Part shown: piece after piece, positions 37,955 to 48,576 of the stretch | Layout: each line of letters begins with the position of its first letter | How positions within the stretch are numbered: position 1 is the stretch's first letter | From: Fidelibacterota bacterium | GTDB taxonomy: Bacteria; Fidelibacterota; Marinisomatia; SCGC-AAA003-L08; TS1B11 | Length of the DNA stretch: 64,000 nt | Assembly (NCBI GenBank): GCA_020354025.1 | Contig: CP070638.1 | Span: 1,130,250 to 1,194,249 of the forward strand | Reading direction: 5' to 3' | The notes under the pieces: generated by a model | What the model was told of the DNA's origin: nothing | Database searches by the model: none | What the model saw: only the letters and a program-made list of their open reading frames with translations | Program-made: the position numbers and the translations under genes

Positions 37955-38073
37955 GGGTGTGAGTTCTTCTTCGCGCATCTCGCGCATCTCGCGCACCTCG
38001 CGCACCTCGCGAACGACAAGTCGCGTCTACGTGTTTATATTCCGATGCCATGAGGACACCGTCGCAAGATCGC
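37955..38073 (+). repeat. Composite repeat element, copy A: GGGTGTGAGTTC flank, 9-bp tandem array (GCGCAYCTC x4 + GCGAACGAC), AAGTC, conserved downstream boxes
   Basis: Array units: 37973-81 and 37982-90 GCGCATCTC; 37991-99 and 38000-08 GCGCACCTC; 38009-17 GCGAACGAC. Downstream boxes: AAGTC; ATATTCC (38037-43); GCCATGA (38047-53); GATCGC (38068-73). The architecture matches copy B at 45795-45896. Confidence 0.8.
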
Positions 38074-38289
38074 AACGTTGATGCTTCCATCGCAAATTTT
38101 CAGGGTGGAAAATTCATCACCCCGGATTCGCGCTTCCCGTCGGGAAAAAACTCTATAATGCGGAATTCTGGTGGGATTTTGCGGAATTTTTCGCCGGTCC
38201 CGTCTTTCCCATCTATTACCGGCAGTTCTCCTTATCCCCTGTTAACCGTCACCACCTGCAGCCAATCCCCTTCTGCTATTGCCGCCTTC

Positions 38290-43697: not shown

Positions 43698-44611
43698 AGT
43701 TGCGAATCTAGACGTTCTTCTTCTTGAGATTCGGGCGCCTGTGAAAGAACCTGATAGGCCTGGTAGCGCACGCTTTCCATGGGGTCCATGCGGGAGACCA
43801 GCAGTAGAGCCGACCGGACCGACAGATCGTCCAGAAAATAAGCCAGGTTTTCCACCGCGGCCAGTCGCACTCCCTCGTTGTCGTCCTCCATGACTGTTTT
43901 GACGAGCGCGTCCTTAACAAGCGGTGACTGCACTCCGTGCAGACTCTTGAGTATGGATAGTCGGACGCCTGGATTTTCGTCTGTCAGCAGGGCTGAGATG
44001 AGAGCCATCATGGTGGATTCCTTCTCCGGCAAACCCGGCGTACCTCCCAGAATGCGTGCTGATTGCAGGCGTTGCCCCGGATTGGGATCCTTTACTAGTA
44101 CATATTCTAGGGCTGCCAGTATATCCTCGCGGTCTGCGGATCCGGTGAGTTTCATCTCTTGACCCATGGTGAGGTTGAGCTCCACTGGAGTATCCGGATC
44201 ATCCAGGAGGTTCACATCGATATCTTCTAGCTGTCCGGACCGAATAAGCTCCGCTAGATCGGTCTGGGAGATCTGGCTCACCTGTTGGGCGGCGGTGGGG
44301 AAAGCCGAAGTGACGGGACGGGTGATAATAAACCTGCCCACCAGGATACCCAGGATCAGAGCAGTGCTCCAGACCAGGATCGGCCTGGCTGGCATCCACA
44401 GGTAGGGGAGTTCCTCCCACCACAGCTGGAGCCGCTCCCACAAGCGCGACAGCAGGCCGGCCTCTTCTGTTACCGCGATGGCGCCCTTGAGTCTTACTCG
44501 TTGGTCAAGCAGCCACTCATCGCTTACACGATAGACAGGTTCGATCCCGGCGAAGATTTCCCTGATCTGCTCGTCAGATAGGCTGGGTGTTCGTTGAACT
44601 TTTCTAGGCAT
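43694..44611 (-). CDS. Putative anti-sigma factor: single-pass membrane protein with extracytoplasmic HEAT-like repeats
   Basis: Overlaps the ECF sigma stop by 8 nt. Central TM helix PILVWSTALILGILVGRFII. C-terminal repeats DENPGVRLSILKSL / DDNEGVRLAAVENL / DPMESVRYQAYQVL. No HxxxCxxC zinc motif. The role is inferred from position and topology. Confidence 0.45.
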   Translation of the reverse strand: MPRKVQRTPSLSDEQIREIFAGIEPVYRVSDEWLLDQRVRLKGAIAVTEEAGLLSRLWERLQLWWEELPYLWMPARPILVWSTALILGILVGRFIITRPVTSAFPTAAQQVSQISQTDLAELIRSGQLEDIDVNLLDDPDTPVELNLTMGQEMKLTGSADREDILAALEYVLVKDPNPGQRLQSARILGGTPGLPEKESTMMALISALLTDENPGVRLSILKSLHGVQSPLVKDALVKTVMEDDNEGVRLAAVENLAYFLDDLSVRSALLLVSRMDPMESVRYQAYQVLSQAPESQEEERLDSQL

Positions 44612-45140
44612 AAGCTGCCAGGTCCTTCCTCAGTTTAAGGGTTGCCCGGTGTAGGTACCGCTTGATGGTACCGGTGGTGCAACCCAGGAGTATGGCAATG
44701 TCCTTGATTTTATGCCCCTGGTAATAGCGCATGACAAAAACAGTCCGCTGTTTCGGGGGCAAGGCCTCAACGGCTTCAATGATGTTCTGTTGCTGTTCGG
44801 TACGCTCCCGATTCTCATCGTTGTAGGAGTCGTGATAGCCCTCTTCCAGGGAGACGTTTTCCAGGTGATAACGCTGCCGGCTGCTGCGGTAGCTGAAACA
44901 GGTATTGGCCGTAATGCGATAAAGCCAGGTGTAGAACTCGCTCTTAAACTCGAAGGAGGGGAGATTCTTCCAGGCTTTAATGAAAACTTCTTGGTAAATA
45001 TCTTCTGCATCTTCCTTGTTCTTCAAAAGTTGCATCGCCACGGCCATGATTCTCGCATCGTACATGGCCACCAGTTCGTGGAACGCTCGCTGATCGCCTC
45101 CTTGGGCTGATCTGATTAATGCGACGGTCTTTTCGTCCAC
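44604..45140 (-). CDS. ECF (group IV) RNA polymerase sigma-70 factor
   Basis: 178 aa. Region 2 (EDIYQEVFIKAWKNL..., FYTWLYRITANT) and region 4 (LPPKQRTVFVMRYYQGHKIKDIAILLGCTTGTIKRYLHRA). GTG start at 45140. Confidence 0.9.
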   Translation of the reverse strand: MDEKTVALIRSAQGGDQRAFHELVAMYDARIMAVAMQLLKNKEDAEDIYQEVFIKAWKNLPSFEFKSEFYTWLYRITANTCFSYRSSRQRYHLENVSLEEGYHDSYNDENRERTEQQQNIIEAVEALPPKQRTVFVMRYYQGHKIKDIAILLGCTTGTIKRYLHRATLKLRKDLAAYA

Positions 45141-45258
45141 GTCCCGCCTTTCACACCTGCTTAGACCCTCTTGACGAGGATTTGGTTGTCATCAGAATTG
45201 CACCCTTTAGTATTAGTTCTGTTGAAAACAGAATTACCTCCCTGAAGATAGTAAACTG

Positions 45259-45286
45259 AGACGGTGTCTGGGGAGAAAATGTTGCC
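45259..45286 (-). promoter_or_regulatory. Candidate ECF-type promoter (GGCAAC-N17-CGTCT) upstream of the ECF sigma gene
   Basis: The minus strand reads GGCAAC attttctccccagacac CGTCT about 120 nt upstream of the GTG. This AAC/CGT architecture is typical of autoregulated ECF promoters. It is a single occurrence judged by eye. Confidence 0.3.
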
Positions 45287-45297
45287 CGTAAATGTTT

Positions 45298-45454
45298 CTG
45301 GTTTCGAGGTCCTGGTTTCGAGTTTCTAGCCCCGCCAACGGCGGGGTAGTGCAACGTAGCGGAGCCTTCCCCGCCTTCTCTTTCCCCTCTCTCAGGAGAG
45401 AGGGGACGACACGAAGTGAGAGCCTGTCCCGACCTTGCGTCGGGAGGGTGAGTG
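45298..45454. repeat. Cluster of direct repeats and GC-rich hairpins (REP-like module)
   Basis: CTGGTTTCGAG occurs twice (45298-308, 45312-322). Hairpins: CCCCGC/GCGGGG (45330-46), with a third complementary CCCCGCC at 45369-75; CCCCTCTC/GAGAGGGG (45384-91 / 45398-405); TCCCGAC/GTCGGGA (45427-33 / 45439-45). GGGTGAGTG follows. Confidence 0.7.
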
Positions 45455-45702
45455 ATCTTAAAAGCCAGTTCGCCAGCTGCCTCACACCGGTCTTCCTTAG
45501 CAGGGCTAACGGTAGGACAGCGGCTAGTGCGAGTTTTCACTTGCCATATTCAGCTTCATACCCACATTCGGCGCAAAGTCAGTTTCCGATAATCGTATTT
45601 ATCTGAAGAGTTCCCAGGCTCGATGCCGCCTGATTCTTGCCCACTCGCGCCTTCTCACCCTCCACTATCCTTCATCCTTCGAAGCCGTTGTTCCCGTTTG
45701 AG

Positions 45703-45783
45703 CCCTTCGCGCACTTTGCGCCCTTTGCGCCCTTCGCGCCCTTCGCGCCCTTTGCGCCCTTCGCGCCCTTCGCCCCTCTGCGC
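45703..45783. repeat. 9-bp tandem repeat array, about 9 units of CCCTTYGCG
   Basis: Units in register from 45703: CCCTTCGCG, CACTTTGCG, CCCTTTGCG, CCCTTCGCG, CCCTTCGCG, CCCTTTGCG, CCCTTCGCG, CCCTTCGCC, CCTCTGCGC. Confidence 0.9.
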
Positions 45784-45794
45784 CAGCTGAAACA

Positions 45795-45896
45795 GGGTGA
45801 GTTCGCGCACCAGGCGCACCAGGCGCACCAGGCGAACGACAAGTCCTTCCCTTTTCCATATATTCCCGCCATGACCAAAGCGCGGACCAGGATCGC
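45795..45896 (+). repeat. Composite repeat element, copy B: GGGTGAGTTC flank, 9-bp tandem array (GCGCACCAG x3 + GCGAACGAC), AAGTC, conserved downstream boxes
   Basis: GGGTGAGTTC (45795-804). Array units: 45805-13, 45814-22 and 45823-31 GCGCACCAG; 45832-40 GCGAACGAC. Downstream boxes: AAGTC; ATATTCC (45860-66, the same 14-nt spacing after AAGTC as in copy A); GCCATGA (45868-74); GATCGC (45891-96). Confidence 0.8.
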
Positions 45897-46094
45897 CTGC
45901 TACCCCCAGCACGTCCGGGAGGATGCCTTCGCCTACTACTGCGCCGGGCATACCCGGGCGGAGGGGGAGCCGGAACAGGAAACGGCTCAGGAGGCTGCGA
46001 AATGATTTCTGATCGCAGCGCGCTTTTTTTAGCGCCCGCAATATTGGTTCATCGCTCCCCTCGGCAGGCATTGGCCATTTTCTGGCCATTTGCT

Positions 46095-46177
46095 GGGTAT
46101 CCGGTGGGCCTTACCGGGGTATCCGGTAGACCTTACCGGGGTACCCGGTAGACCTTGCCGGGGTTATCGGTGGGTAG
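46095..46177. repeat. 22-bp tandem repeat (3.7 units), each unit containing the palindrome CCGGTA-N5-TACCGG
   Basis: Units: GGGTATCCGGTGGGCCTTACCG (46095-116), GGGTATCCGGTAGACCTTACCG (46117-138), GGGTACCCGGTAGACCTTGCCG (46139-160), GGGTTATCGGTGGGTAG (partial). A perfect palindrome lies at 46123-46139. The array sits 145-225 nt upstream of apbE. Confidence 0.85.
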
Positions 46178-46216
46178 TGAAGGGGTTTCTCCGGGGCGTT
46201 GACGGGGTCGTGGCTG

Positions 46217-46290
46217 GCCTCAAGCTTCAAGTCCCAAGCCCCATGTCTCAAGCCCCAAGCCTCAAGCCCCCAGCCTCCAATTCCCCATTC
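46217..46290. repeat. C/A-rich degenerate short repeats (CAAGCCCC-like)
   Basis: CTCAAGCTTCAAGTCCCAAGCCCCATGTCTCAAGCCCCAAGCCTCAAGCCCCCAGCCTCC, directly upstream of apbE. Confidence 0.7.
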
Positions 46291-46319
46291 CCGGTCCTGG
46301 CGGAGGTATATTCAGACCT

Positions 46320-47351
46320 ATGACTTTTGCACCGAGCAGCAGCGTTGCTGAGCCGCGGGGACGTTTCCTGCCGCTCGTGTTAATTAGCCTGGCTCTAATG
46401 GCAGGGGCCCTGGCGACCTCTGGATGCAAACCACGTTTCACCCCGGTTACAGTAGTTGAAACCCACTTCTTTCAGTCGCCGGTTGTCCTCAGCATGGGCG
46501 CAGGAAGCCCGGAAGAGCTGCAGGTGGCTGCGACACTGGCCAGCTCCGAGATTCGCCGATTAGAAAGGGTATTTAATCCATTAAATCCCGATGGGGGTCT
46601 ATATCAGCTCAACGAGACCAGAAGTATTACCGATTCGGAGCTTTACCCGATCCTGGAACGGGCTTATCAGGTCTCACAGTTGACCAACGGCGGCCTGAAC
46701 ATCTTCATGGGCTATCTGGAGCGGGCTTACGGTTTTGACAAGCGCTTCCCTCGTCCCCCGGATCGGAGTGCAGTGCGGGAGCTGTTGCTGCCCTTGCGGC
46801 GGGCAAGCATTCAGTTTGTCCCGGATGACTATCAGATGAAGATGCCCAATGATGCCTTTGCCATTTCGTTGACGGGTATCGAGGAGGCGTATACGGCTGA
46901 TCAGGCGTTGGCCCATCTGGTTTTTGCCGGGATATCGAACGCTATGGTACAGGTAGGTCCCCATGTGGCCTGCGGGGGGTCGCCCGACGGTTTGGGATGG
47001 CCAATCAGCGTCAGGGATCCAGTATCGGGAGAAACGGCAGTGCGGTTGTTTGTAGAAAACAGCGGCGTCGCCATCGCCTCCATCAACGACCAGGCCTACA
47101 CCTTCCGGGATAGCACCTACTACAATCACCTGGACCCGACCACAGGGCGTCCAGCCCGCTCACTCAGGTCGGTAACCGTCGTAGCACCTTCCTGCGAACT
47201 GGCTGGCGGCCTGGCTCGGGGCATTTTCGTCATGAATCCCGAAGATGGCTTGCGGCTGCTGAACGACCTGCCCGAGATAGATGGGATTATCCTGGATTCT
47301 GAAGGGGGGATAACCATATCGGATAGCCTGTTCATCTGGATAGGAAAATAA
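46320..47351 (+). CDS. apbE: ApbE-family FAD:protein FMN transferase (lipoprotein)
   Basis: Lipobox LATSGC. ApbE-like motifs GIEEAYTAD, ASINDQAYTF and NHLDPTTGRPA (H-x-x-DP-x-TG). Confidence 0.75.
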   Translation: MTFAPSSSVAEPRGRFLPLVLISLALMAGALATSGCKPRFTPVTVVETHFFQSPVVLSMGAGSPEELQVAATLASSEIRRLERVFNPLNPDGGLYQLNETRSITDSELYPILERAYQVSQLTNGGLNIFMGYLERAYGFDKRFPRPPDRSAVRELLLPLRRASIQFVPDDYQMKMPNDAFAISLTGIEEAYTADQALAHLVFAGISNAMVQVGPHVACGGSPDGLGWPISVRDPVSGETAVRLFVENSGVAIASINDQAYTFRDSTYYNHLDPTTGRPARSLRSVTVVAPSCELAGGLARGIFVMNPEDGLRLLNDLPEIDGIILDSEGGITISDSLFIWIGK

Positions 47352-47433
47352 GACCATGCCTATCTTTCGAGTGCAGGCGGTTCATTGCCGTATCTATCGG
47401 CGGAATACCCACAGTTGATGAGGGTGATTGAAG

Positions 47434-48576
47434 ATGGCTGGTATGGTTATTTGGATTTTACTGCTGCTGACCACCTTGGTATTTGCCTGGTGGCTGCTCA
47501 GTTGGGGCATGATCTTCCTGCGAGCCACAGGGGCATTGCTGTATCTGTCTGGGGGAATGAATCCTTTTCTGAGGTGTTTGTATTACCGGATCGAGGTACA
47601 TACCGAACACTACCCCCATGGCAAGGACGGGCTACTGCCCTACCGTGTTTATCGACCCCTAACCCGTTCAGTCGCACCAGCCCTGGTGATTTATCACGGC
47701 GCTACTCCCCACGGTGAAGAGCACCCAGACTTGGACAACCTAGCTCGGGCCCTGGCCCATATCGGGCTGATAGTCTTCATACCCCGGCTACCCCGACTAA
47801 AGGCGGTCATAATTGACGAGAGTAACTTAGACTCTATAACGACCTTCTATCGGTATATCCAAGGGCATGAGCGAATCTGCCCGGGCTATATTAGTGTGAC
47901 TGGGACCAGTTTCGCAGGCGGCATGCTACTCAAAGCCCTGCTGGAGGAGGATATGCACATGCCATCACCAAGGGCAGTATTCCTCTATGGCACCTACTGC
48001 GATCTTGAGACCACTCTCCGATTCATTCTTACCGGGTCAGTAGTTGAAGAGGGGGTGGAAGTTACCGTTGAGCCTGACCGTTGGGGCCAGGTGATCTTTT
48101 TCTATAACTACCTTGAGCATATCACCCAATCATTTAACCGGGAAACAATGCAAGAAGTGCTGGGCTACTACATCACCGACAGGATTGCTGAAGGGGATGA
48201 GGCCAGGGCTAGGCTGTCCATCAATGAACGCCGGATAGCAGACCTCATACTAACCCCAAGTAATCCCGAAAGCAACGCCCTGGCCGAAGAAGTTCTCCAG
48301 CACGCCCGCCCACTTATTGGAAAACTCTCCCCGTCCAGGTTCTACTCCCGGATTCATTTCCCATTCTGGGTTCTACACGGCCGTAGCGATACAATGGTGC
48401 CCTACACCGAAGCCCTGGCTCTGAAACGGCTCATGCCCAGCCAGGTTCGCTTGTACGTGTCCACCCGGTATGGTCATAAGAAGCCGGGCCACGAAAGCAG
48501 CTTATGGCGGTCTCTTCGGGATATGGTGGGGCTGGTTGTTTACCTGGGACGATTCCTGTACGCCGTGAAGGAATAG
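47434..48576 (+). CDS. Membrane-anchored alpha/beta-fold hydrolase
   Basis: N-terminal TM helices; a nucleophile-elbow-like VTGTSFAGG (G-x-S-x-G) region; C-terminal HGRSD...H pattern typical of the dienelactone hydrolase / prolyl oligopeptidase type. I used the ATG at 47434; the track has the TTG at 47428. Confidence 0.6.
   Translation: MAGMVIWILLLLTTLVFAWWLLSWGMIFLRATGALLYLSGGMNPFLRCLYYRIEVHTEHYPHGKDGLLPYRVYRPLTRSVAPALVIYHGATPHGEEHPDLDNLARALAHIGLIVFIPRLPRLKAVIIDESNLDSITTFYRYIQGHERICPGYISVTGTSFAGGMLLKALLEEDMHMPSPRAVFLYGTYCDLETTLRFILTGSVVEEGVEVTVEPDRWGQVIFFYNYLEHITQSFNRETMQEVLGYYITDRIAEGDEARARLSINERRIADLILTPSNPESNALAEEVLQHARPLIGKLSPSRFYSRIHFPFWVLHGRSDTMVPYTEALALKRLMPSQVRLYVSTRYGHKKPGHESSLWRSLRDMVGLVVYLGRFLYAVKE

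Follow-up and report, generated by a model that had tools for sequence, protein, structure and literature searches.

A repeat-dense intergenic region between an ECF sigma factor gene and apbE in a Neomarinimicrobiota genome, its probable origin and the dispersed promoter-like cassette within it

The region, its repeats and its conserved ends

The stretch of 64,000 nucleotides analysed here (G000:C1:1130250-1194249, hereafter the window) comes from the single-contig, 3.40-Mb genome of a Fidelibacterota (Neomarinimicrobiota) bacterium, G000, with a GC content of 53.5%. It contains a gap of 1.18 kb (45141-46319) between two divergent genes, one on the minus strand encoding a sigma factor of the extracytoplasmic function (ECF) type with Sigma70_r2 and r4_2 domains (44604-45140), and apbE on the plus strand (46320-47351; PF02424, 1.6e-42). 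A sequence-only reading had described this gap as non-coding, unusually rich in hairpins and tandem repeats for a compact genome, and potentially a structured RNA, a contingency locus of the variable number tandem repeat (VNTR) kind or a protein-binding platform controlling both flanking operons. All the repeats that it listed were recovered where it had placed them by Tandem Repeats Finder, a direct-repeat search and folding, and their density is far above chance: 315 merged tandem arrays in the 3.40 Mb of G000 correspond to about 0.11 expected per 1,179 nt, and the region holds four to five. Among non-overlapping 1.18-kb segments of the genome it ranks about tenth for arrays, and by crude gene calls based on open reading frames (ORFs) the median intergenic distance in G000 is 68 nt, with 18 gaps of 1 kb or more. 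The region is rare in its density, but it has counterparts in G000: at least eight further stretches rich in repeats have a copy of the promoter-like cassette described below no more than about 1.2 kb away, and the same build of hairpins, 9-mers, cassette, short satellites and 3' motif recurs at G000 1508136-1508714 and 3253148-3253527. The reading frames that stay open over the arrays are, as had been suspected, an artefact of repeat units devoid of stop codons.

Comparison with relatives indicates that only the extremities of the region are likely to be under clear constraint, namely some 60 nt with a putative ECF-type promoter and 5' untranslated region (UTR) on the minus strand and about 40 nt before apbE. 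On the sigma side, approximately 26 nt (45141-45166) are common to all congeners compared (G001, G003 and G005 among them), and the whole conserved segment (45141-45286, minus strand), which would comprise a short 5' UTR and the promoter, is kept as far as 45283-45286 in G004, L066 and L067 at 86-92% identity (146 nt with the closest of these). Its sense strand reads TGACAACC-N17-GTCTAAG, with a candidate -35 box TGACAACC at 45191-45184, a 17-nt spacer and a candidate -10 box GTCTAAG at 45166-45160; G000, G004, G005 and G003 agree exactly or almost exactly in both boxes and vary in the 17-nt spacer, a pattern from which we infer an ECF-type promoter of the sigma operon. In congeners the gene upstream of the sigma gene is malate dehydrogenase or another gene, across gaps of 330-815 nt.

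On the other side, the apbE-adjacent segment (46280-46319, plus strand) is 81-88% identical in G002, G004, L046 and L066-L069, that is, in the closest relatives only, and includes TATATT at 46307-46312, 7 nt before the ATG. The same hexamer precedes the ATG of apbE and of ORF144, a gene discussed below, by 7-8 nt with no Shine-Dalgarno sequence nearby, which suggests that both might give rise to leaderless transcripts. A genome-wide count of TATATT-N7/8-ATG showed that the excess at 7-8 nt is due to the cassettes, with no clear excess outside them. The segment 46280-46319 is a putative promoter. More distant congeners have other neighbours and ordinary upstream regions of 30-410 nt (30-320 nt in the case of apbE), and the closeness of the sigma gene and apbE is particular to G000. 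A conserved protein-binding platform for both operons is therefore not supported, as relatives share only the short ends.

A site of variable cargo

Inward of the sigma-adjacent segment lies a 14-nt direct repeat, CTGGTTTCGAG, present twice at 45298-45325 (repeat search). Stretches resembling CTGGTTTCGAG match several loci in G002, G004 and G005, defining a short repeat dispersed in the genus, and in L067 the equivalent position is occupied by GTTACGG/GTTACGAG. It is followed by a module of three GC-rich hairpins (45330-45346, 45383-45406, which is a perfect 11-bp stem, and 45428-45444) that extends over 45330-45456 and ends in GGGTGAGTGA. The minimum-energy fold of the plus strand uses an alternative CCCCGCC partner at 45369-45375, and the folding z-scores are modest (-1.8 on the plus and -2.6 on the minus strand). 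Copies of this module (45327-45456) were found in at least four other loci of G000 (1348397, 2840739, 3160551 and 540881) and in all six genomes of the genus (g1), and in L067 the hairpin unit is duplicated immediately upstream of a cassette. As short, clustered GC-rich hairpins that are confined to intergenic regions, numerous in each genome and common to a genus, they are reminiscent of the repetitive extragenic palindromic (REP) sequences and bacterial interspersed mosaic elements (BIMEs) of proteobacteria. Unlike these, to which they are unrelated in sequence, the hairpins here finish in a GGGTGAGT box and often stand directly upstream of a promoter cassette.

Beyond the hairpins lies the sigma-side flank of the site (45457-45581), for which no second copy was found in G000 or in the species genomes searched. 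Two metagenome contigs, L066 and L067, recovered through the conserved start of apbE, hold both flanking genes at 84-92% identity and place them 4.4 kb and 6.2 kb apart, respectively, in contrast to the 1.18 kb, without cargo, of G000. In L067, a 12-nt direct repeat (GTTTCCGATAAT and GTTTTCCGATAAA) lies on both sides of 4.76 kb of cargo. The window has a single copy, GTTTCCGATAAT at 45582-45593, and this joins the left flank of the L067 cargo (45500-45593 versus L067 1175-1269, 85% identity) directly to its right flank (45583-45722 versus L067 6029-6168, 86.5%), the latter covering the apbE-side flank of the site at 45594-45696. Since the lone 12-mer is bordered by both L067 flanks, the region corresponds to an empty or collapsed form of the site.

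The cargo itself, observed directly, differs from one relative to another (spans L067 1270-6028, L066 352-4728 and L032 1119-3365). L066 encodes a protein combining HTH_3 and Peptidase_M78 domains (RmrA/CapP-like in PADLOC; RmrA/ImmA-like), a DUF4411 protein and a DUF559 endonuclease, and L067 two proteins of no known identity and a Dsr1-like protein of 1020 aa (PADLOC 2.9e-52). In G002, the gene for a 748-aa N6/N4 DNA methylase lies 650 nt upstream of apbE. The same flanking genes thus enclose different cargo in L066 and L067 and none in G000. One flanking gene pair, varying defence-type cargo, a short direct repeat at the borders and an empty form in G000 are all features of known defence islands and integration hotspots; the present site differs from them in that its cargo yielded no integrase or recombinase, and the informative relatives number three. 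As a separate observation, of the Dsr1 profile the Dsr1-like protein of L067 matches no more than the C-terminal two thirds.

The cassette and the broken ORF144 module

Next to the apbE-side flank, an array of CCCTTYGCG 9-mers (45697-45784; 8.6 copies or about nine units, also scored with a period of 27) leads into the promoter cassette (45785-45864, plus strand), which was delineated by a promoter scan and by its 46 copies in G000. It is composed of a border CAGGGTGAGTTC, three copies of GCGCACCAG (45805-45831), GCGAACGACAA (45832-45842) containing a -35 hexamer ACGACA (45836-45841), a 17-nt spacer and a -10 hexamer TATATT (45859-45864). Tandem Repeats Finder reports the GCGCACCAG array at 45805-45834 with 3.3 copies and 100% match, and the promoter scan places its call at 45836-45864. 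In a self-search, 45802-45875 recurs about 40 times in G000, and 46 copies conform to (GCGCACCWS)1-7 + GCGAACGACAA + N16 + TATATT. The last two 9-mers, ACGACA and TATATT have a high information content and the fixed-length spacer a low one, and TATATT occurs in its exact form at the fixed offset in 35 of the 46. Hexamers that are kept, in the arrangement ACGACA-17-TATATT, around a spacer that varies are what is expected of a sigma-70-type promoter and, judged by this conservation, the pattern is a promoter signature. Further downstream, at 130-470 nt, 37-38 of the 46 copies have a 3' motif, TTTTGGTGGGATTTTGCGGAATTTT, made of three TTTTG tracts 10-11 nt apart. An exact 20-mer of the cassette is present in dozens of copies in all six genomes of g1 and in a second genus (g4) of the family; a search of four other families of the order did not recover it. 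A cassette faces apbE from 450-900 nt upstream in all close relatives examined, with differing payloads: ORF144 in L046 (and in G004 as far as the contig reaches), a remnant of it in G000, and non-coding units in G002, L067 and L068.

The sequence-only reading overlooked both the membership of the GCGCACCAG array in this 46-copy family and a broken gene that follows it. We found that 45748-46219 is homologous to G000:2836812-2837537 with a gap of 300 nt, and that the two loci represent a dispersed module of about 0.7 kb. By alignment to intact copies, 45871-46005 (plus strand) is a 44-codon remnant of a conserved gene for 144 aa, ORF144, so the region is essentially non-coding as had been claimed, with this exception. 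The remnant retains residues 1-31 and the last 13, and an exact in-frame deletion of 300 nt (100 codons) lies between 45962 and 45963, where imperfect 7-nt repeats, GGGCGGA and GGGCTGA, bracket it. Nucleotide and protein homology to an intact gene together with a disabling lesion mark it as a pseudogene; a metagenome scan for the deletion junction returned no match. The intact paralog (G000:2836983-2837414; L009 4984-5415, minus strand) encodes 144 aa, follows a cassette and adjoins glnA. It is 97% identical to the window copy before the deletion point, over 215 nt, and 87% identical after it, and this step in identity at the deletion suggests gene conversion of the 5' part with the glnA-side paralog, possibly in one event with the deletion.

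ORF144 itself is, on comparative evidence, a real gene. We found 18 homologues, mostly of 144 aa and 69-86% identical, with intact 144-aa copies in G000, G002, G004, G009 and metagenomes, at two or three copies per genome and beside apbE, glnA or hydrogenase. In the metagenome contig L046 an intact ORF144 lies 333 nt upstream of apbE, and in G004 its 3' part lies at an equal distance before the contig end cuts it; the copy in the window is therefore a broken local syntenic copy. No match was obtained for the family in Pfam, PHROGs, NCBIfam or a PDB profile search. The AlphaFold model (mean predicted local distance difference test score, pLDDT, of 80) begins with a helix-turn-helix, formed by helices 13-24 and 29-43, and continues into a long helix (47-131). 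In Foldseek the helix-turn-helix had only weak counterparts (E 0.17-1), in the DNA-binding domains of small terminases and of mariner/SETMAR transposases. Over about 48 residues this predicted N-terminal motif superposes at 1-2 A on the domains of the small terminases of phages G20c and P74-26 and of mariner/SETMAR, and ORF144 further resembles a small terminase in size (144 aa), in its helix-turn-helix and long-helix layout and in the 11-nt-phased repeat array after the gene. In contrast to terminases and transposases, apart from these weak Foldseek scores, it has no sequence-level match, catalytic domain or nearby phage genes. More distant helix-turn-helix relatives (28-40% identity) are also encoded immediately behind cassettes, as at G004:C11:2655 and G006:C48:3709.

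Each ORF144 copy (L009, L042, L043 and L046) is preceded by a cassette and followed by a conserved tail of about 215 nt with an 11-nt periodicity. In the window this tail (46006-46219, plus strand), recognized by its similarity to the others, comprises a stem-loop with a T-rich loop, two copies of GGCCATTT and an 11-nt-periodic array of units starting with GGG. The periodicity was read by eye, and the GGCCATTT pair and the 22-mers noted earlier belong to it; Tandem Repeats Finder reports an 11-mer array of TGGCCATTTGC at 46072-46096 (2.3 copies) and the 22-mer array at 46095-46164 (3.2 copies). The tail is 79-88% identical to that of every ORF144 copy examined (the paralog, L042, L043 and L046), with all matches stopping at 46219. 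As its frame is not conserved between copies, it is non-coding. Beside the intact paralog, a low-GC stretch (L009 5700-8400; G000:2837700-2840400) contains genes for three unannotated proteins (211, 323 and 264 aa), the third with Cys-rich motifs close to its C-terminus, and may be another variable island next to a cassette.

Origin of the region and nature of the cassette

In our view the region is probably a strain-variable hotspot, lying between the ECF-sigma and apbE operons, in its collapsed or empty state; it would be built of lineage-specific repeats and would not constitute one functional element. Between the two ends that appear constrained, the sigma-side flank would carry REP-like hairpins and a short dispersed repeat, and the single GTTTCCGATAAT would mark the spot at which a relative carries 4.76 kb between two copies. 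Next to it would lie the dispersed module of about 0.7 kb (portable cassette, ORF144 and 11-nt-periodic tail), whose gene appears to have lost 300 nt between imperfect 7-nt repeats and whose 5' part was probably homogenised with the intact paralog near glnA. The tandem arrays would be by-products prone to slippage and to rapid gain and loss of units. Transcription from the cassette toward apbE probably still takes place, and since no terminator is predicted in between (none was predicted anywhere in 44900-46500), read-through into apbE may occur. The empty state could reflect excision, or the site may never have been filled. Several observations weigh against this account: domain searches found no integrase or recombinase in the cargo ORFs, the contigs that reach across both flanking genes number only two, a 44-aa peptide might have been kept, given that the deletion is in frame (although one deletion in three would be in frame anyway), and cassette, remnant ORF and conserved tail could still yield a functional transcript. 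If the account is correct, length and repeat density do not by themselves make an intergenic region of a compact genome a regulatory device; in the present case relatives resolve the region into a hotspot junction, dispersed repeats and a broken gene, and identify a strain-variable defence hotspot between an ECF-sigma operon and apbE in an uncultivated Neomarinimicrobiota lineage.

The last of these objections defines the alternative that survives best, which we nonetheless regard as unlikely: the cassette would drive a transcript, from 45871 to about 46219, that functions as a non-coding RNA or encodes a micro-peptide and acts on apbE or in trans, the tail being a functional site in RNA or DNA and the 44-codon ORF a retained small protein. 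In every copy the tail is conserved to the same degree as the coding part and ends sharply at 46219, and the stem-loop after the stop codon, by eye, seems to keep its pairing despite changes (GCGCT/AGCGC here and GCAC/GTGC in G004); the reading frame survived the deletion, and the orientation of a cassette toward apbE is constant among the close relatives. On the other hand, the remnant is without residues 32-131, so that it has lost the long helix as well as the second helix of the predicted helix-turn-helix, and in G002, L067 and L068 an unrelated non-coding unit takes the place of ORF144. A typical cassette unit folds little better than shuffled sequence (z = -1.65). The Rfam covariance scan that the sequence-only reading had recommended, run on 44000-47500, offered only a miRNA model, mir-8364, whose 22.7 bits (E = 0.81) fall far short of its gathering score of 67. 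The idea of a single structured RNA is thus not supported, and five other cassette loci gave no Rfam match at E <= 1.

That the region is a contingency locus, in which slippage in the 9-mer, 22-mer or 7-mer arrays reversibly tunes transcription of apbE or of the sigma operon, appears very improbable to us, despite the variability of the arrays. A comparison of copy numbers, as had been advised, directly revealed such variability between paralogs and relatives: about nine CCCTTYGCG units in the window, three in the G000 paralog and one in L067, and a 22-mer array that is 44 nt longer than in the paralog and L046. The GCGCACCWS units abutting the -35 hexamer likewise range from 1 to 7 among the 46 cassettes. 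The region shares with the contingency loci and VNTRs of host-adapted bacteria these short tandem arrays whose unit number varies between copies. It departs from them in placement, as no array lies between a -35 and a -10 hexamer or within an intact ORF; the arrays are situated ahead of the cassette, within the non-coding tail and before the apbE-proximal segment, and the differences known are between species or paralogs. Moreover, array sequences are swapped for unrelated ones in relatives, suggesting neutral turnover. This is exemplified by the hypervariable microsatellite at 46217-46280, a tract of 7/14-mers GCCCCAA/CAAGCCCC detected by Tandem Repeats Finder immediately upstream of the 40 apbE-proximal nucleotides: it is of the CAAGCCCC type in G000, made of GGACAAC/CACCAAT 7-mers in G002, G004 and L046, and of a TCATT type in L067. 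That the repeats or the 300-nt deletion are an assembly artefact is scarcely credible: the 215-nt stretch 97% identical to a second locus could in principle mislead an assembler, but no array reaches 90 nt, the assembly consists of one 3.4-Mb contig, the difference from the paralog past the deletion (87% identity) precludes a simple chimera, and the same modules occur in independent assemblies. The sequence-only reading had named such an artefact, combined with a short ordinary gap in relatives, as what would overturn it, and of this pair it is the existence of relatives without this region that was observed.

While the region is ordinary in kind, the cassette family is the more interesting object and merits its own study. 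It represents a lineage-specific, promoter-like cassette with tandem 9-mers that has spread genome-wide and is shared between genera, and it has allowed us to define an orphan family of 144-aa helix-turn-helix genes that travels with it. Our literature search found no paper on such repeats in Marinimicrobia. Tentatively, and with a good deal of doubt, we raise the possibility that the cassette is a new kind of portable promoter that would drive non-coding units of about 200-450 nt ending in three helically phased TTTTG tracts, and that at least two genera of this Neomarinimicrobiota family maintain in about 20-45 copies per genome. On this proposal ORF144 and its distant helix-turn-helix relatives would be cognate oligomeric DNA-binding proteins for the 9-mer arrays or the 11-nt-phased tails, in the manner of a small terminase or transposase on repeated sites, and the region in the window would be a decaying node at a defence hotspot. 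As short, multi-copy, promoter-like intergenic units found at gene-order breaks, the cassette units recall the Correia elements of Neisseria, enterobacterial repetitive intergenic consensus (ERIC) sequences and elements resembling miniature inverted-repeat transposable elements (MITEs). They differ from Correia and MITE-like elements in having unlike ends, a 9-mer array fused to the -35 hexamer at the 5' end and a T-tract motif at the other, and in an interchangeable payload of non-coding units, ORF144 or ordinary genes. No inverted repeat between the ends of the units stood out by eye, no systematic search for inverted repeats or target-site duplications having been made.

Other identities considered for the units were discarded. 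They are not promoters of tRNA or rRNA genes, no tRNA being within reach of any cassette, nor small protein genes, as the frame from the ATG to the 3' motif is 0, 1 or 2 depending on the copy and many copies have early stops. RNAalifold found no consensus structure that would point to a conserved 5' hairpin, the only feature visible by eye being a covarying stem of 3-4 bp around YATGMWRA, and no terminator was predicted at the 3' motif of the units. A second unit in the window, at about 38000-38190 (G000:1168249-1168440), occupies a position that is not conserved across five congeners. Cassette units are often located at gene-order breaks, and in fragmented genomes many are located at contig ends; in G000 a run of N at about 1017800-1017848 lies directly upstream of a cassette. 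At G000:1508136-1508369, a 44-nt unit with a CCCGC-N5-GCGGG hairpin in each copy is repeated 4.8 times, and this array begins at the stop codon of the upstream gene and runs into a seven-unit 9-mer array and a cassette.

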